DNA of 58,930 nucleotides, the filler included. It is 6 parts of 6 records of this genome, joined end to end, with 100 filler letters (N's around TTAATTAATTAA, not from the genome) between each part and the next. Parts side by side here need not be neighbours in the genome. Positions count along the whole stretch, not along the records: positions 17,864 to 24,045 come from SRR31156797_24157; 5 more parts are not named here. One strand, 5' to 3'. This document shows, one piece after another, positions 6,142-49,464 of this stretch (position 1 is its first letter; the number at the start of each line of letters is the position of its first letter). Made by a program: the position numbers and the translations under genes. A model generated the notes under the pieces. The model did no database searches. It was not told where the DNA came from and saw nothing but the letters and a program-made list of their open reading frames with translations.

Positions 6142-6241
6142 NNNNNNNNNNNNNNNNNNNNNNNNNNNNNNNNNNNNNNNNNNNNTTAATTAATTAANNN
6201 NNNNNNNNNNNNNNNNNNNNNNNNNNNNNNNNNNNNNNNNN
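6142..6241. other. Artificial contig spacer (N-run, TTAATTAATTAA, N-run)
   Basis: 100 nt, all-frame stop linker, identical at five positions; composition changes across it. Confidence 0.98.
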
Positions 6242-17763: not shown

Positions 17764-17863
17764 NNNNNNNNNNNNNNNNNNNNNNNNNNNNNNNNNNNNN
17801 NNNNNNNTTAATTAATTAANNNNNNNNNNNNNNNNNNNNNNNNNNNNNNNNNNNNNNNNNNNN
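17764..17863. other. Artificial contig spacer
   Basis: N-run, TTAATTAATTAA, N-run. Confidence 0.98.
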
Positions 17864-18025
17864 TAAAGTTCCATAGTTTACACCCAACTGCTCAGATGCT
17901 TTCTTTAATCCAATTTCATCGGACAGCTTTAATGCCTGTTCTTTAAACTCTTTACTGTACTGTTTCATACTCATACCCTTATATTCTCGGGTATTTTTAG
18001 ACTGCACTTTTATGATAATCCTTCA
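17864..18025 (-). mobile_element. Left end and orfA start of an IS3-family element (cut by contig end)
   Basis: MKQYSKEFKEQALKL...ASEQLGVNYGTL HTH; minus-strand end begins 5'-TGAAGGATTATCATAAAAGTGCAG at 18025 (IS3 ends start TG). Confidence 0.72.
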
Positions 18026-18794
18026 CTTCTCCGCATATTGAGCCTCAGCTCCAAGCTCTTCAATTCGCTCGTTAATCCTTTCGATTTTTGCTTCAAGTTC
18101 CAATATAGCGGTGTAATATTCGTTGAATACTTCCTGGTGAATATCCTCTTCAAAGGTTAGTGTTTTCATCCATTTATGAAAAATTCCCGTCCAGTATCGG
18201 TTACTGGTGGGATATCTCTTTCCCAGTCGGAGAAGGAACTGCATCATCCGTTGTTTGTGGCGCTTCAAATCTTTTCTCATGTCGTTACAAATTCGTAGAT
18301 AATCCCGAACAGCCTCATCTGAATGGGTTGGGATGTATACATTGACAATTTCCTGGTTTCGTAGAGCCTTTGCCAGCAGAACAGCATCTCTGCTGTCGGT
18401 TTTGATTTTGTCTCCGGGTTTCCGAGGGAGCATTGAGGAATGCTGCCACATGGCAGGTGATATCCATCTCTTCCAGCTGCCTGTAAATGACATACCCGGT
18501 CGGACCTGCTTCATAGCAGCAGATAATATTAGTTGATTTCTCTTTGAGCTGGGTGAAGTACTTTTTGATTTTTCCCGGTTCATTCTTTATTTGTCGTTCA
18601 AACTCGATGGTCCGACTATTATCCCTGATTACCGCCAGGGAAACTGTCTCTTTGTGGACATCCATTCCGACATAAAATATACTGTTCATAGTGACCTCCG
18701 TTGATTTGTATGTGGCGTGCTTGCATTTTCTGGTAACTAAATGATGTTAGCTAATCCACGAGTTTGCAAACACGGGGGTCACTTCATATTGTCT
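18026..18794 (-). pseudogene. IS110-family recombinase/transposase remnant with non-coding left end; frameshifted and truncated by the IS3 insertion
   Basis: MNSIFYVGMDVHKETV, CCYEAGPTG (ORF 18315-18689) continue in another frame as PRKPGDKIKTDSRDA...VYIPT (ORF 18023-18583); frameshift near 18440; C-terminal domain absent. Confidence 0.85.
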
Positions 18795-18879
18795 ACACCA
18801 CGCACACGATCATAGCAACGCTATTCCAAATTAATCAAATTTATTGAAAAGAAAAGTACATTCCTTTGGAATGTTGGGG

Positions 18880-18908
18880 TTGACATCTATGTTAATATTT
18901 TTTATCAT
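18880..18908 (+). promoter_or_regulatory. sigma70 promoter upstream of leader copy 1
   Basis: TTGACA (18880-18885), N17, TATCAT (18903-18908). Confidence 0.65.
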
Positions 18909-18919
18909 TTTATGATAAA

Positions 18920-19165
18920 TGAAGTAAGTCTTCAGACTACCTTCTTGGCGAGCTATTTGACGTATAAGTGTGGCAGTTAGTAAACTAAGAAAAACAGGAA
19001 AATGAAGGTTGAAAAATTTGTTAATTAGAACTGGGGTTTATCCAGGGTCTCTCGTAGAGGCAATGGAGTATACTATATTGATGGTATAAAGTGAGTCGAA
19101 AGGCGAAGCTTAGGCACTCTAACTCTATAATCTTCATGATTGTAGAGTTAGAGTGCCTTTTTTTT
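18920..19165 (+). ncRNA. Candidate cis-regulatory structured RNA leader, copy 1 (core 19025-19165)
   Basis: Four hairpins, then a 21-bp terminator stem (19112-19158) and T-tract, 32 nt before the opuAA-like ATG; homologous to 19983-20217. Confidence 0.78.
19112..19165 (+). terminator. Intrinsic terminator within leader copy 1
   Basis: AGGCACTCTAACTCTATAATC-TTCAT-GATTGTAGAGTTAGAGTGCCT followed by T-run. Confidence 0.88.
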
Positions 19166-19197
19166 ATGCCCCAACGATTTTCGAGGAGAAATAAATA

Positions 19198-19740
19198 ATG
19201 GCACTAGTAGAAGTAAGGGATCTTTACAAGATTTTTGCTACAAATTCTAAACGCACTATTCCGATGATAAAGGAAGGATTGTCGAAACAGGATGCACTAA
19301 TGAAATTAACAGTGCTACATTTAACATTCACAAAAATGAAACCGTTGTAGTTATGGGGCTTTCAGGTAGCGGTATGTTTACATTTATTAGATGCCAAAAT
19401 AGATTGATTAAGCCCACCGCCAGCCAAATCCTTATTGACGGTGATGATATTGTCAAAAAGGAGTCTCAAAAACTTCAAGAATTAAGACGCCGAAAGATGT
19501 CCATGGTATTTCAGAGCTTTGGGCTACTTCCCCATCGAAACGTTATAGCCAGTGTGGAATTCGGCCAGGAGCTTAGTGATATTGATAAGGTTATGCGCCG
19601 GGAAAAAGCAATGTAGGTCTTGAAGCTTGTCGGTCTTGAGGGGTTTGTATTCAGCCTCCCCAAGGAGGGAGCTTTCCGGAGGGATGCAGCAAAGGAGTGG
19701 CTTGGTTATAGCTTTTGCAAATAATCCTGAGCATCTTTAA
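19198..19740 (+). pseudogene. opuAA: Glycine betaine/proline ABC transporter ATPase (OpuAA/ProV) pseudogene
   Basis: GAGGAG RBS; MALVEVRDLYKIF start; frameshift near 19305; degenerate Walker A (MGLSGSGMFT); MVFQSFGLLPHR; TAG at 19614-19616; frameshifted LSGGMQQR...ANNPE remnant; 3' half and permease missing. Confidence 0.85.
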
Positions 19741-19764
19741 TACATTATAATGTGAGGTATCTAT

Positions 19765-19911
19765 ATAGAAGAAAGAATTGTTCTTATTTGCCCAGAATGC
19801 AAAGTAGAGCTGAAAACAGAAAAAAGTTTAGACATTGAAAATGGAAGCTTTCGTTGTCCTTCTTGTGGGAAACGTGTTCAAATGACAATGAAGAAGAAAA
19901 AGAGAAGATAG
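19765..19911 (+). CDS. 48-aa zinc-ribbon-like small protein (ATA start, non-canonical or mutated)
   Basis: GAGGT RBS, then ATA-EERIVLICPECKVELKTEKSLDIENGSFRCPSCGKRVQMTMKKKKRR-TAG; two CxxC knuckles; absent from the ORF track. Confidence 0.55.
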   Translation: MEERIVLICPECKVELKTEKSLDIENGSFRCPSCGKRVQMTMKKKKRR

Positions 19912-19982
19912 AAACTTTTCTCTTTTAAATAACAAAACCTATATTAAGGGCTTTTGATTAAGCTCTCTATATCAAACAAAGG

Positions 19983-20217
19983 TGAAGTAATTCAACTTAG
20001 TACCATTCTGGTGAGACTGCCAATGTAGATGCAGTGGTAGATCGAACCGGTAAATTAAAAGGGAAATGTGGAGTGAAAAATTTTTATTTAGAACTGGGGT
20101 TTATTCAGGGTCTTTTTTAGGCAATGGATTATACTACACCACGTGGTATAAAGTGAGTCGCAAGGCGAAACTTAAGCACTCTAACTCTATGAAAAATAGG
20201 GTTGGGGTGTTTTTTTT
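19983..20217 (+). ncRNA. Candidate cis-regulatory structured RNA leader, copy 2 (core 20088-20217)
   Basis: Same hairpin series as copy 1 with structure-preserving changes; terminator ends 26 nt before the KamA-family ATG. Confidence 0.8.
20174..20217 (+). terminator. Intrinsic terminator within leader copy 2
   Basis: AAGCACTCTAACTCTAT-GAAAA-ATAGGGTTGGGGTGTTT (17 bp, 4 G-U) followed by T-run. Confidence 0.82.
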
Positions 20218-20243
20218 ATCCCACCCGTAAACCGGGAGGCGTA

Positions 20244-21419
20244 ATGCTCACGACGATGAATGAATTAAAAAACAATTGGCAGGCAAATCAAATGCACTGG
20301 ACGGAGGAATTGCAACACAATATAACCTCTGTGGATAAGCTCAAGGTGTATCTGCCGATCAGCCCAAAGGAAGAGGCTGATATCCGGCGGATTTGCGATA
20401 TCCATCCAATGAACATCCCCAGATACTATCTATCCCTAATCGATCCCGATAATCCCGAAGATCCAATTAGGAAACTGGCTATACCTGTTAGCGATGAATT
20501 GATAGTGGCCGGAAAGATGGGTGAAACCACCGCCGATCCCTATGGAGACGATAAACACAACATGGGAAACGGTATTTTGCATAAATATCCCTATTCCGCC
20601 CTGGTGGTGGCCACCGAGTATTGCTCCATGTACTGTCGGCACTGCTTCAGGAAGAGGCTGGTGGGGCTCCCAAATGATCAGACGGTAAAAAACTTCCTCA
20701 ATGCCGTGGAGTACATCAAGGAGCATAAAGAGATAACGAATGTGATTATCTCCGGCGGGGATCCCCTGCTGCTGCCTACAGAGATACTAAAGAAGATGTT
20801 GACCCCGCTTATGGAGATCGATCATGTCAACTATGTTCGTATCGGAAGCCGGGCTCCGGTGGTATTCCCTCATCGCTTTTTTGAAGATGATCTTTTAGAT
20901 TTCTTTGAGGCATTTAACCTGTCAAAAACTCTATATCTGCCCACCCACTTCAACCATGCAAACGAGATTACCCCACTGGCGATTGAGGCGGTTTCCAGGA
21001 TAAGGCAAACCGGTACCACCGTAAACAACCAGGCGGTATTCCTGCGCGGAGTCAATGACACCCCCGAAGCTCTTGAGAATTTAATGAACGGTCTGGTAAG
21101 GATCGGGATCAACCCCTACTACCTGTATCAGTGTATGCCAGTGGAAAGGGTGAGAAGCCATTTCCAGATTCCCCTGAAGGAGGGTATCGATACGGTAACC
21201 GCCGCCAAAAGCCGATTGGACGGATATGCCAAGCGATTCAAATTCATCATGGGCCACGATTCCGGGAAAATTGAAATATGCGGACGTCATAAGGATACCC
21301 TGATTATGAGCCGGATTCATGCACGCCCCGAGGGTGTTGATGAGGAGTCTATTCTCCTGCGAAAGCTGAATGAGTCCGGCGGATGGCTGGAAGACTTTTC
21401 ACCGATTAATGGCAAATGA
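20244..21419 (+). CDS. KamA-family radical SAM, PLP-dependent 2,3-aminomutase (substrate uncertain)
   Basis: GGAGG before ATG 20244; DPIRK, HKYP, CSMYCRHCFRKR (CxxxCxxC), ISGGDPL, RIGSR, THFNH, NQAVFLRGVND, PYYLYQC, SGKIEI (probable PLP Lys). Confidence 0.9.
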   Translation: MLTTMNELKNNWQANQMHWTEELQHNITSVDKLKVYLPISPKEEADIRRICDIHPMNIPRYYLSLIDPDNPEDPIRKLAIPVSDELIVAGKMGETTADPYGDDKHNMGNGILHKYPYSALVVATEYCSMYCRHCFRKRLVGLPNDQTVKNFLNAVEYIKEHKEITNVIISGGDPLLLPTEILKKMLTPLMEIDHVNYVRIGSRAPVVFPHRFFEDDLLDFFEAFNLSKTLYLPTHFNHANEITPLAIEAVSRIRQTGTTVNNQAVFLRGVNDTPEALENLMNGLVRIGINPYYLYQCMPVERVRSHFQIPLKEGIDTVTAAKSRLDGYAKRFKFIMGHDSGKIEICGRHKDTLIMSRIHARPEGVDEESILLRKLNESGGWLEDFSPINGK

Positions 21420-21519
21420 CAAAGAGTTCGGCAGCATTAAATGTCGAAAAAGCCGGGTAAACCCGGACAATCATAAGTTTATTGAAGCTTGTGGTTGACT
21501 TTTTATAGGAGTAACCAAA

Positions 21520-23634
21520 ATGGAAAATGAAGATATCTCACTAACGACAATATACGGGTCCAATCTGTTTAGCAATTCCGTCTTACAGGAAAGGCTGCCT
21601 CAGAAGGACTTTGAAACGATAAAGAAAGTACAACGCGGAGAGGAAAAGCTTTCCCGAGAACTCAGCGCCAAGGTAGCGGTGGCCATGAAAGAGTGGGCCC
21701 TGGAAAAAGGCGCCACCCACTATAGCCACTGGTTTCACCCCATGACAGGAGCCACAGCAGAAAAGCACGACTCTTTTATCGAGCCAACCGCCGAAGGTAA
21801 TGTGCTACTCGATTTCTCCGCAGATTCGCTTCTGCAGGGTGAACCGGATGCCTCCTCGTTCCCTTCGGGAGGCCTGCGGGAGACCTTTGAGGCCCGTGGA
21901 TATACCGCCTGGGATACCACCAGTCCCGCTTTTCTAAGAGACGATGGAGCCGGCAAAACCCTGACAATTCCCACGGCTTTCATATCCTACGATGGCCATA
22001 GTCTGGATACCAAAACACCGTTGTTAAAATCCATAAATGCCCTGAGCGTACAGGCCAGGAGAGTGTTAATGTCCCTGGGAATGGAGGATGTGAAAACTGT
22101 CATCCCAACAGTAGGGCCTGAACAGGAGTACTTCCTGGTGGACAGAAAGTTTTACGAAAAACGACCGGACCTGCTGCTCACGGGACGGACAATCTTCGGC
22201 TCCATGCCCGCTAAGGGGCAAGAGCTTGATGACCACTACTTCGGAGCCATCAAGGATCGTGTAAAAAGATTCATGAAGGACTTAAACGAAGAGCTCTGGA
22301 AGCTCGGAATTAGCGCTAAAACACAACACAACGAGGTGGCGCCTAATCAGTTTGAATTGGCGACAGTGTTCAGCACCGCTAATATTGCAACCGACAACAA
22401 TCAAATATGTATGGAGATTATGCAGCGGGTTGCAGAGCGTCACGACCTGGTCTGTCTGCTCCACGAAAAACCCTTTCACGGATTCAATGGTTCCGGTAAG
22501 CACAACAACTGGTCGCTTTCAACCGATGGAGGTGTGAATCTTCTCACTCCGGGGGACGATCCCGGCTCTAACACGCGTTTTCTCCTTTTCCTCGTCTCTA
22601 TTATAAAAGCGGTCGATCTATATGCGCCCTTGCTACGCCTCTCCGCCGCCAACCGGGGAAATGATCTGCGGTTGGGAGGTCATGAGGCGCCCCCAGCAGT
22701 AATAAGTGTTTATCTTGGTGATTTGCTCACTGAAATCCTCGAAGGCTTGGGGTGCGGTGAGGATGTAGAGTGCCAGGATCAGGGATATCTGAAGACGGGA
22801 ACCTCCAATCTTCCACGGCTCCCCAAGGATACCTCCGACAGGAATAGGACCAGCCCCTTCGCCTTTACAGGTAATAAATTCGAATTTCGGATGGTTCCTT
22901 CTTCAGGCTCTATCGCTGAACCCAACATAGTCCTCAACACCGCAGTAGCTGATGTTCTGGCCGAAATGGCCGAAAGACTAGAGCAAAGCACCGACACAGA
23001 AAAAGCCGCCAGGGCCATGGTGAAAGAATACTACAACAAGCACCACAGAATTATATTCAACGGCGATGGTTATTCAGACACCTGGGCAGAAGAGGCTCGT
23101 CACCGTGGACTTCCCTGTTTTCAAACCACCATTGATGTACTTCCGGAACTTGTAAAACCTTACACCCGGGACCTCTTTCGCAGACGTAAGGTATTCACTG
23201 AGCAGGAACTGGAATCTCGGCTCAATGTGTACCTTGAGCGGTATATAAAAGAGGTCAATATCGAAGCTGCGGTGGCGGTGGAGATGACGGAAAGGCAGAT
23301 AATTCCCGCAGCCCTTGGCTATGCCGGTGGCATTGCAGAATCCCTGAATCGAAGTAAGACGATCATTCCTGATCTGGATATTTCGGAAGAGCAAAGCCTT
23401 TTGTCAATGATTCATGCGGATACCCGCGAGTTAATCAAACTGGCCGCCAAGCTGGAAAGGGAGCGCAGTGAACTCCTTGGTGAAGAAAACCTGCATCGGC
23501 AGGGAGAGGGTTTCAAAGAAGCTGTCCTCCCCCTGCTGGAAGAACTGCGGACCAGAGCAGATTCACTGGAAAAACGATTATCCAAAGAAGCCTGGCCCTT
23601 TCCCGGGTATGAGGACCTGCTCTTTCGCTTGTAA
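21520..23634 (+). CDS. glnN: Glutamine synthetase type III
   Basis: 704 aa; GATHYSHWFHPMTG-TAEKHDSF, EPDASSFPSGG, GPEQEYFL, HNEVAPNQFE, HEKPF-GFNGSGKHNNWS, DRNRTSPFAFTGNKFEFR, WPFPGY. Confidence 0.94.
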   Translation: MENEDISLTTIYGSNLFSNSVLQERLPQKDFETIKKVQRGEEKLSRELSAKVAVAMKEWALEKGATHYSHWFHPMTGATAEKHDSFIEPTAEGNVLLDFSADSLLQGEPDASSFPSGGLRETFEARGYTAWDTTSPAFLRDDGAGKTLTIPTAFISYDGHSLDTKTPLLKSINALSVQARRVLMSLGMEDVKTVIPTVGPEQEYFLVDRKFYEKRPDLLLTGRTIFGSMPAKGQELDDHYFGAIKDRVKRFMKDLNEELWKLGISAKTQHNEVAPNQFELATVFSTANIATDNNQICMEIMQRVAERHDLVCLLHEKPFHGFNGSGKHNNWSLSTDGGVNLLTPGDDPGSNTRFLLFLVSIIKAVDLYAPLLRLSAANRGNDLRLGGHEAPPAVISVYLGDLLTEILEGLGCGEDVECQDQGYLKTGTSNLPRLPKDTSDRNRTSPFAFTGNKFEFRMVPSSGSIAEPNIVLNTAVADVLAEMAERLEQSTDTEKAARAMVKEYYNKHHRIIFNGDGYSDTWAEEARHRGLPCFQTTIDVLPELVKPYTRDLFRRRKVFTEQELESRLNVYLERYIKEVNIEAAVAVEMTERQIIPAALGYAGGIAESLNRSKTIIPDLDISEEQSLLSMIHADTRELIKLAAKLERERSELLGEENLHRQGEGFKEAVLPLLEELRTRADSLEKRLSKEAWPFPGYEDLLFRL

Positions 23635-23675
23635 AACAATTGATAGATGTATCGCTTTTCATCGCAACCTGAAGG

Positions 23676-23711
23676 ATAGACTGCATCTTAAGTTATTAAG
23701 ATGCAGTCTAT
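23676..23711. terminator. Perfect 16-bp hairpin downstream of GSIII (likely terminator)
   Basis: ATAGACTGCATCTTAA-GTTA-TTAAGATGCAGTCTAT. Confidence 0.65.
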
Positions 23712-23831
23712 ATTCATACGTTCATTTTCATTCACTGCTGTCCGGTTAAATAAAATAATTGGTTAGTAAATCCCGGAATCCTTTGTAAAATGAGTTTGGG
23801 CAAACCATTACAAGGGAGAGAATTACTAACC

Positions 23832-23906
23832 ATGAAGAAGTATAGCACAGTGCTGAATTCTTTGAGTAGTCATATTTCACGATATGATTTCAATAAAATC
23901 GTTAAC
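23832..23906 (+). pseudogene. Possible N-terminal remnant of an IS4-family transposase
   Basis: MKKYSTVLNSLSSHISRYDFNKIVN resembles the DUF4372 N-terminus; similarity ends abruptly. Confidence 0.35.
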
Positions 23907-24045
23907 CCGCATTTCTCACCAGGTTTATAACTGAAAAAGGATTTCCCATGTTAAAGTATTTGTGACTTAACAATAACACTAACAAAAAAGGAAATCCTAT
24001 ATGAATACAAAGTGTAAGTAACCGTCAATTTCCCAGGCCCTACGA

Positions 24046-24145
24046 NNNNNNNNNNNNNNNNNNNNNNNNNNNNNNNNNNNNNNNNNNNNTTAATTAATTA
24101 ANNNNNNNNNNNNNNNNNNNNNNNNNNNNNNNNNNNNNNNNNNNN
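24046..24145. other. Artificial contig spacer
   Basis: N-run, TTAATTAATTAA, N-run. Confidence 0.98.
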
Positions 24146-33920: not shown

Positions 33921-34020
33921 NNNNNNNNNNNNNNNNNNNNNNNNNNNNNNNNNNNNNNNNNNNNTTAATTAATTAANNNNNNNNNNNNNNNNNNNNNNNN
34001 NNNNNNNNNNNNNNNNNNNN
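33921..34020. other. Artificial contig spacer
   Basis: N-run, TTAATTAATTAA, N-run. Confidence 0.98.
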
Positions 34021-49364: not shown

Positions 49365-49464
49365 NNNNNNNNNNNNNNNNNNNNNNNNNNNNNNNNNNNN
49401 NNNNNNNNTTAATTAATTAANNNNNNNNNNNNNNNNNNNNNNNNNNNNNNNNNNNNNNNNNNNN
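49365..49464. other. Artificial contig spacer
   Basis: N-run, TTAATTAATTAA, N-run. Confidence 0.98.

Follow-up and report, generated by a model that had tools for sequence, protein, structure and literature searches.

An aminomutase and a glutamine synthetase behind a leader RNA

The 58,930-nucleotide stretch of DNA analysed here (the window, filler included) contains a 6.2-kb contig of a marine spirochaete (17864-24045, with N linkers on both sides) on which a gene for a KamA-family radical S-adenosylmethionine (SAM)/pyridoxal 5'-phosphate (PLP) aminomutase is followed by a gene for a type III glutamine synthetase (GSIII), both standing behind the second of two copies of a structured leader RNA (Table 1). 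An earlier note, made from the letters alone, had proposed that the two genes form a beta-glutamate/beta-glutamine osmolyte pathway. It had described them as co-oriented and 100 bp apart, with leader copy 2 upstream and a strong hairpin 3' of the GSIII gene, and our open reading frame (ORF) calls, leader location and reading of the hairpin gave the same layout. The sequence GGGAGG was read 5 nt 5' of the aminomutase start codon. The spacer hairpins had been described as small and lacking U-tracts. This held for the hairpin at 21453-21466, which has no T-run on the + strand in either the terminator scan or the sequence reading, but the spacer also contains a weak, AT-rich terminator-like hairpin (21468-21497; 13 pairs, only 3 of them G-C) followed by ACTTTTTATA. 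No sigma-70-like promoter was listed in the spacer by the promoter scan, and no sigma-54-type promoter was seen there on inspection by eye. In the relative L001 the gap between the two genes is 3 bp, which argues for one transcript carrying both, and the hairpin behind the GSIII gene is the probable end of this operon. ORF and family scans of the 6.2-kb contig found no ablB, efp/epmA or lysine-fermentation genes, as the earlier note had stated for the neighbours of the pair.

Table 1. Features of the aminomutase-GSIII locus, with positions counted along the window
Feature	Position	Strand	Basis or remark
IS110-family transposase copy, frameshifted; two overlapping ORFs matching successive parts	18023-18689	-	family match
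Promoter-like site TTGACA-17-TATCAT before leader copy 1	18880-18908	+	promoter scan
Leader copy 1	~18916-19172	+	upstream of proV remnant; repeated by copy 2
Leader copy 1 terminator	19113-19157	+	terminator scan
ProV/OpuAA-type (betaine/proline/choline ABC-transporter ATPase) pseudogene remnant	19199-19737	+	TIGR01186 match, tblastn
Leader copy 2: 5' long-stem domain, three-hairpin core, intrinsic terminator	~19979-20218	+	directly upstream of aminomutase gene
Leader copy 2 terminator and T-run	20174-20212	+	terminator scan
KamA-family radical-SAM/PLP aminomutase gene (391 aa)	20244-21419	+	ORF listing; ATG 20244, stop 21419
Intergenic spacer, 100 bp, small hairpins	21420-21519	.	sequence reading and terminator scan
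GSIII gene (704 aa)	21520-23634	+	ORF listing, Pfam, PDB 3o6x match
16-bp perfect hairpin after GSIII gene, without clean T-run	23676-23711	+	read from sequence

The aminomutase and its orphan clade

The aminomutase passed the cut-off of the general KamA-family model (TIGR00238, 268.6 against 199.2) and failed those of the more specific models, namely lysine 2,3-aminomutase (TIGR03820, 266.7 against 525.4), arginine 2,3-aminomutase (TIGR04468, 247.2 against 600), glutamate 2,3-aminomutase (TIGR04368, 243.6 against 650), AblA-like-2 (230.6 against 396) and EpmB (TIGR03821, 210.9 against 369.3). As reference enzymes we took family representatives from the library search, assigned by NCBIfam and aligned with the window protein: P0171 for the lysine enzyme (TIGR03820, 638 > 525), P0231 for the glutamate enzyme (TIGR04368, 693 > 650) and P0187 for the arginine enzyme (630 > 600). 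P0171 has the pocket motifs YQCD and VVDAPGGGGK; Asp stands at both pocket positions in it and in the AblA proteins of loci L053 and L073, the aspartates of YQCD and VDAPGGGGK being those that bind the lysine epsilon-amino group. P0231 has HAK and VNAPKGLGK, with Lys and Asn at the two positions, and the window aminomutase has YQCM, with a one-residue insertion (MPVERVRSHF), and FIMGHDSGK, with Met and Gly. C-terminal cysteines number four to six in the AblA protein of L053 and in P0171 (six in the tail of the latter); there are none in the 38-residue tail of P0231 or the 45-residue tail of the window enzyme. The alignment and the model scores thus reproduced what the earlier note had read by eye or given as background: YQCM and IMGHDSGK in the window protein, two Asp and tail cysteines in the lysine enzyme, Lys and Asn in the glutamate enzyme, a tail without a Cys cluster, and a fit to neither enzyme. 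Judged by its residues, the pocket does not match the lysine, glutamate or arginine specificity, the three that have been characterised.

The catalytic core is conserved. The window protein retains the CSMYCRHC iron-sulfur motif, the GGD motif (SGGDPL) and the PLP lysine (in GHDSGK); in an alignment of 74 sequences C134 and K342, the PLP lysine, were invariant and C127 and C131 nearly so. Also kept is the arginine of CFRKR, which lies two positions beyond the third Cys and, according to the literature on 2A5H, binds the alpha-carboxylate. An AlphaFold model built on the 74-sequence alignment reached a pLDDT of 93.1 and superseded a single-sequence model with a pLDDT of 37, and Foldseek matched it best to 2a5h (E = 1e-33, TM 0.77; next match TM 0.42). 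Because these motifs are retained and the confident model has the 2a5h fold, the aminomutase looks like an intact KamA-family radical-SAM/PLP enzyme.

A word-indexed search returned 6683 relatives at E <= 0.001 among 8000 scored candidates, the best 120 being 65-79% identical to the window protein. In the genome collection, 317 stretches encode aminomutase relatives; the best 80 of these (L001 onward, referred to below as the 80 loci) are 63-71% identical and belong to Spirochaetes, Desulfobulbales, Desulfuromonadales, Campylobacterota, Nitrospinota, Kiritimatiellae, Fibrobacterales, Planctomycetota, SAR324 and Gammaproteobacteria (Sedimenticola, Thiodiazotropha, Neptuniibacter). Going by record titles and with no statistic applied, these hosts seem to be mostly marine or saline taxa. 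Among the carriers are two cultured strains, Sedimenticola selenatireducens DSM 17993 (L064) and S. hydrogenitrophicus SN1189 (L068), and a metagenome-assembled genome placed in Malonomonas rubra (L063). After clustering at 50% identity, the clade was reduced to a single full-length representative (P0121, 67% identical to the window protein), the next matches being 42% identical. In a FastTree phylogeny of 123 rows with SH-like (Shimodaira-Hasegawa-like) support, the seven clade rows were monophyletic at 100% support on a long stem. They sat within one half of the family, of 38 rows and with 99% support, in which the Asp293 column is mostly Arg (24 Arg and 10 Met rows); the lysine, glutamate and arginine enzymes all fell in the opposite half. 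The motifs YQCMPV(E/S)RVR and FI(M/I/L)GH(D/E)(I/S)GK are kept in the clade across phyla. Within lineages, a sample of 201 genomes from the deltaproteobacterial order of G004 had 37 carriers of the clade, and one of 401 genomes from the class of G001 had 3, along with two Arg-type relatives (44-47% identical). The clade is tight and widespread across phyla, and patchy inside lineages.

The Arg-type sister group (L297-L376) has QCRPV... and MSHxxGKIE motifs and a length of about 370 aa, and it scores below all curated cut-offs. It is thus a further uncharacterised group of aminomutases. Its genes stand alone and are widespread in Firmicutes of gut and rumen, in Coriobacteriia and in Spirochaetes, and no conserved partner was found among their neighbours at 80 loci, mostly from gut Firmicutes and Spirochaetes.

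The surroundings of the clade gene include several genes linked to compatible solutes. Bona fide ablA and ablB both adjoin it in L053 and L073, and ablA adjoins it in L016. Genes of the AblB cluster were present at 4 of the 80 loci, including L063 and L065, and a comparison of coordinates in the order sample placed the clade gene within about 2.5 kb of ablB in G004, G047, G066, G071 and G130. Genes for BCCT transporters adjoin it in L051 and L079 and lie close by in L028. MarR regulators were found at 13 loci and Lrp/AsnC regulators at two Sedimenticola loci. A SAM-dependent methyltransferase gene lies directly downstream in L008 (3334-3945, with a 27-bp overlap) and L055 (6253-6885), with a cluster mate in L019 (335-958), and could provide an alternative tailoring step on the same beta-amino acid. 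An Asp/Glu racemase gene follows the clade gene by 16 bp in L057, and GlnH/GlnQ-type ATP-binding cassette (ABC) genes lie near it in L038, L054, L071 and L078. Finally, a second orphan KamA clade adjoins the first in eight loci (L078, L038, L008, L011, L021, L058, L072, L076). Its members have Glu in the Asp293 column, form the sister group of the arginine enzyme and reach none of the cut-offs; behind them in L078 (9021-11565) and L038 (1-2288) comes a gene resembling type I glutamine synthetase (GS-I-like; 338.8 against a cut-off of 429), with GntR regulators and GlnH/GlnQ-type ABC genes near this pair.

The linked GSIII and the leader RNA

The GSIII protein contains the three Pfam domains GSIII_N (PF12437, 238 bits), Gln-synt_C (PF00120, 75 bits) and Gln-synt_C-ter (PF18318, 134 bits), and it matches PDB 3o6x at 601 bits over query residues 8-702, its full length. 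A GSIII gene lies downstream of the aminomutase gene in 3 of the 80 loci (L001-L003), all of them in spirochaete metagenome-assembled genomes. In the reverse search, a KamA neighbour was found at 1 of 80 GSIII loci among the matches listed, on the L002 contig, L001 and L003 not being among these matches. With 3 of 80 KamA loci and 1 of 80 listed GSIII loci, the pairing appears limited to one small spirochaete lineage, within which all four known carriers (the window and L001-L003) retain it. On conservation of the adjacency, which the earlier note had wanted checked, the result is therefore divided: the pair is constant among the spirochaete carriers and rare among related loci.

Each of the genomes G001-G003 carries two GSIII genes, and G002 and G003 also carry a type I glutamine synthetase. 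The window GSIII is 64-69% identical to the KamA-linked copies of these genomes and 56-57% to their second GSIII. Among the linked copies and the window protein, pairwise identity is 64-70%; it falls to 54-58% against the second copies, whose own mutual identity is 61-63%. Because identity within the group exceeds identity to the second copies, the sequences place the linked GSIII as a separate, conserved second paralogue, in line with the dedicated GSIII that the earlier note had supposed.

The leader, of about 240 nt, is a conserved structure, and the terminators at the end of both copies are strong. Both copies fold far more stably than shuffled controls (z = -3.7 for copy 2 and -7.8 for copy 1), and L001-L003 have this leader too, before their own KamA-GSIII pairs. 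A scan of the genome collection with an invariant 16-mer gave at least 120 stretches, mostly chance or coding matches, and a second leader motif used as filter left 13 further leaders among the matches listed. In an alignment of 18 leaders, 35 of 68 consensus pairs had compensatory changes. A covariance model of the leader core (R1) scored 158 bits at 20063-20215 and 159.5 bits at 18999-19161. Among 89 sources, which took in the full set of 80 KamA loci and the loci of the second GSIII copies, R1 matched only the window (twice) and L001-L003; it found one leader copy in each of G001-G003, and none at the 77 of 77 non-spirochaete KamA loci or before the second GSIII copies. The phylogeny and frequency count that the earlier note had suggested thus gave a well-defined orphan clade, with GSIII and the leader beside it only in L001-L003 among the 80 loci. 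A search of Rfam 15 with both copies and the L003 leader gave no family at gathering score and only chance-level hairpins at E up to 10.

The 13 other leaders stand mostly before transporters of osmoprotectants. Five precede a BCCT betaine-type transporter (L110, L124, L173, L182, L192), five a ProV/OpuA-type ABC system (L123, L144, L146, L148, L170) and two an APC-type transporter (L097, L156); the remaining one, at a locus edge (L162), could not be assigned to a gene. They come from Fusobacteriaceae (Propionigenium maris among them), Spirochaetia, one planctomycete and the halophilic clostridium Maledivibacter halophilus. In our structural model the invariant TAGAACTGGGGT and CACTCTAACTCTA form the closing helix P1, the latter strand doubling as the terminator's 5' arm, and the invariant leader strands TAGAACUGGGGU and CACUCUAACUC are partners in the antiterminator model. 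Because P1 uses the 5' arm of the terminator, the folded aptamer should block termination, and the leader would have ON logic. From its covarying fold and overlapping terminator, the leader is predicted to be a riboswitch-type transcription-terminating structure, and it may represent a new class of regulatory RNA or riboswitch for osmoprotection.

Leader copy 1 has its own promoter-like site and stands before the remnant of a proV gene. The TIGR01186 match comes from an 87-aa ORF of this remnant, and tblastn with the ProV of L148 gave 71% identity over 128 aa, with an in-frame stop and the N-terminus in a second frame. The remnant has frameshifts and breaks off at about residue 240 of the 472-aa ProV query. 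An IS110-family copy lies directly upstream of the leader/proV region, hinting at rearrangement of the locus. Between the proV remnant and leader copy 2 there is a small + strand ORF (19790-19908) with two Cys-x-x-Cys pairs, resembling a zinc ribbon. As for the window as a whole, it is made of six contigs joined by N44-TTAATTAATTAA-N44 linkers (6142-6241, 17764-17863, 24046-24145, 33921-34020, 49365-49464). The GC content of its pieces ranges from about 38% to 63%, and given this spread the six pieces may not all come from one organism.

Function of the operon and comparison with known systems

Taken together, the unassigned intact enzyme, the dedicated GSIII, the osmoprotectant leader and the linkage to abl and BCCT genes make a role in compatible-solute metabolism likely, at about two in three. 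The more specific reading that we favour, to which we give a probability of about 0.4, is that of a leader-controlled two-gene operon that would make a beta-amino-acid solute of the glutamate family, from glutamate through beta-glutamate to beta-glutamine. The aptamer would fold with TAGAACTGGGGT and the 5' half of the terminator in its closing helix, preventing termination; the same leader class would switch on osmoprotectant importers in other bacteria. The aminomutase would then shift the amino group of a free amino acid from the alpha carbon to C3, most likely turning L-glutamate into beta-glutamate, and the linked GSIII would amidate this product, giving uncharged beta-glutamine, a reaction known in vitro from the glutamine synthetase of a methanogen. 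In the many other phyla where the aminomutase occurs by itself, the pathway would end at the beta-amino acid or at a form tailored in another way.

The following considerations led us to beta-glutamate. A stand-alone enzyme must give a useful product; beta-glutamate is a known abundant marine solute that a glutamine synthetase is known to amidate; and lineage-specific tailoring would mirror ablA/ablB. In the available portion of PMC8269262, beta-glutamate is abundant in marine metabolomes and ranks with the small molecules of highest abundance in certain marine microbes and in seawater particulates, and the part of PMC1224877 at hand describes beta-amino acids as metabolically inert solutes and a Methanohalophilus glutamine synthetase that converts beta-glutamate to beta-glutamine. 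The accessible text of PMC9337991 reports riboswitches that control ablA and eam. Further hints of a glutamate-family substrate are the GS-I-like gene in L078 and L038, the racemase in L057, the GlnH/GlnQ genes and the Arg of CFRKR, together with the Arg that the aligned sister sequences have at the Asp293 position. The pathway claim of the earlier note thus stands in part: the osmolyte context is borne out by the transporter-type leader and the abl and BCCT neighbours, and the adjacency to GSIII proved narrow.

Several observations weigh against this reading. Glutamate is not indicated by the aligned pocket residues, because the pocket has Met and Gly and not the Lys and Asn of P0231, and the loss of the Arg of the sister group could equally mean that the substrate is neutral, for example glutamine. 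The catalytic motifs of the linked GSIII and of the second copy are identical, and of 727 columns only 16 are fixed differently between the linked and second copies, seven sequences being too few for interpretation; as far as its sequence goes, GSIII gives no sign of altered specificity. Being found at only 3 of 80 loci, the GSIII adjacency cannot define the function of the whole clade. Clustering of neighbours at the 80 loci gave no universal partner, most loci having no conserved neighbour. In the order of G004, ablB was present in 24 of 37 carriers and in 81 of 164 non-carriers, a co-occurrence short of significance (Fisher p = 0.10). Both strands of P1 are invariant, so there is no covariation support for this helix. 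In addition, as far as the available part of PMC1224877 goes, early nuclear magnetic resonance work excluded an aminomutase route to beta-glutamate in methanogens.

The same pocket could be read for a reversed order of reactions, in which GSIII raises glutamine under salt and the aminomutase makes beta-glutamine from L-glutamine, ordinary glutamine synthetase supplying the glutamine elsewhere. Met replacing the Arg of the superclade (24 Arg and 10 Met among 38 rows) is in keeping with a switch from a charged side chain to a neutral one, the Gly-His-Asp/Glu stretch before the PLP lysine is conserved, and GlnH/GlnQ-type transporter genes adjoin at four loci; the salt-induced glutamine synthetase glnA2 of Halobacillus, in the portion of its description available, offers a precedent. 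However, two conserved Arg follow just after the Met (MPVxRVR), so that the positive charge may have shifted rather than vanished, and the aminomutase-first gene order lends no support. Moreover, beta-glutamine as a solute is reported from Methanohalophilus only, in the part of PMC1224877 at hand, whereas the clade is widespread and usually stand-alone. On balance we consider this order of reactions unlikely.

About equally unlikely is that the substrate is some other neutral or small amino acid, its product perhaps methylated, with GSIII merely co-regulated for nitrogen assimilation and for glutamate and glutamine pools in salt. A Met/Gly pocket that matches no known specificity would suit such a substrate, as would the methyltransferase genes directly downstream in L008 and L055 and their cluster mate in L019, a linked GSIII with no visible change in its active site, and a GSIII linkage that is lineage-specific. 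Yet a distinct GSIII paralogue kept in four of four spirochaete carriers, 3 bp from the aminomutase gene in L001, exceeds loose co-regulation, and the second aminomutase with its GS-I-like gene in L078 and L038 echoes the theme.

The operon could also serve salvage, with beta-glutamate or a related beta-amino acid imported from the environment and reconverted to the alpha form to supply carbon and nitrogen, which we regard as improbable. Beta-glutamate is plentiful in seawater particulates according to the part of PMC8269262 available, and ABC importer genes and GntR, Lrp/AsnC or MarR regulators adjoin the clade in several loci. Reversibility of the aminomutase reaction is established for lysine 2,3-aminomutase. 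Nevertheless, no conserved downstream genes of beta-amino-acid catabolism were found at the 80 loci, the leader is elsewhere tied to importers of betaine/proline-type osmoprotectants, linkage to the biosynthetic ablA/ablB favours synthesis, and the glutamine synthetase would have no clear role. Least probable of all is a beta-amino acid destined for protein or peptide modification, as with EpmB and EF-P, and unrelated to solutes: the clade and its Arg-type sisters do stand mostly alone without conserved neighbours, as housekeeping modification genes often do, and the sisters are common in gut Firmicutes that face no salt stress, but the score for the EpmB model lies below its cut-off, clustering of the 80 loci gave no efp/epmA-like conserved neighbour (no family-level search for efp or epmA was made), and the leader regulon and the abl/BCCT adjacency point to solutes.

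A literature search on aminomutase-glutamine synthetase osmolyte pathways, bacterial radical-SAM routes to beta-glutamate and riboswitches of BCCT or proV genes, with subscription journals and supplements outside its scope, found no description of the clade, the operon or the leader. What is new here is the link of GSIII to the orphan clade and the leader shared with osmoprotectant transporters. The operon has been brought under a class of leader that otherwise serves importers of osmoprotectants. Beta-glutamate is abundant in the sea, as the available part of PMC8269262 indicates, yet few genes known to make it have been described. The clade is common and unstudied, its links to solute genes make its function directly testable, and the spirochaete operon offers a ready pair of an aminomutase and a dedicated ligase. 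The leader, if ligand-binding, would add a sensor for osmotic state. In its widest form, which we consider doubtful, our favoured reading of a glutamate-family solute would make the clade the so far missing route by which bacteria of marine anoxic habitats form beta-glutamate and beta-glutamine, and a second, independently evolved glutamate-family aminomutase, and the leader a new ON riboswitch for an ionic or osmotic signal, coordinating solute uptake and synthesis in Spirochaetes, Fusobacteria, Planctomycetes and Clostridia.

Among known systems, the lysine 2,3-aminomutase of Clostridium subterminale (KamA, 2A5H) shares the fold of the window aminomutase (TM 0.77; 35% identity over 381 columns, phmmer 237 bits) and its CxxxCxxC motif, GGD motif, PLP lysine and Arg after the third Cys. 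In the window enzyme Met takes the place of Asp293 and is followed by one extra residue, Gly takes that of Asp330 in FIMGHDSGK, and the two enzymes stand on opposite sides of the family split supported at 99%. Glutamate 2,3-aminomutase (Eam, TIGR04368), first described in Clostridioides difficile, is of the same family, and the clostridial Eam type is, to our knowledge, the only class of enzyme to form beta-glutamate out of glutamate. In the tree Eam clusters with the lysine enzymes, apart from the window clade, and it has Lys/Asn in its pocket where the window enzyme has Met/Gly; its likeness to the window operon is that it is reported, in the accessible text of PMC9337991, as a riboswitch-controlled osmoprotectant gene. 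Structured terminator leaders of the Na+-I and cyclic di-AMP (c-di-AMP) riboswitches precede ablA, eam and osmoprotectant genes in the same portion of that article, a gene set similar to that behind our leader, which differs from both classes in architecture and conserved sequence and has no Rfam match even at E = 10.

AblA and AblB follow the same logic, a 2,3-aminomutase and then a charge-neutralising tailoring enzyme that together give a compatible solute under salt regulation (PMC1224877, in the part available), and their genes physically adjoin the window clade in several genomes. They differ in that tailoring is by a GNAT acetyltransferase, whereas the window operon has an ATP-dependent amide ligase, GSIII, and in that the window aminomutase, by its pocket residues, cannot bind lysine in the manner of AblA. 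The glutamine synthetase of Methanohalophilus portucalensis is proposed in the available part of PMC1224877 to convert beta-glutamate to the solute beta-glutamine, as we propose for the window GSIII. It is archaeal and has no known gene linkage, while the window enzyme is a bacterial GSIII, and that portion of the article leaves the source of beta-glutamate in M. portucalensis unestablished and argues against an aminomutase route in methanogens. The window protein matches GSIII 3o6x over its full length, with the three Pfam domains and the catalytic motifs conserved; unlike 3o6x, it belongs to a second paralogue group that stands behind a salt-type leader and beside an aminomutase.

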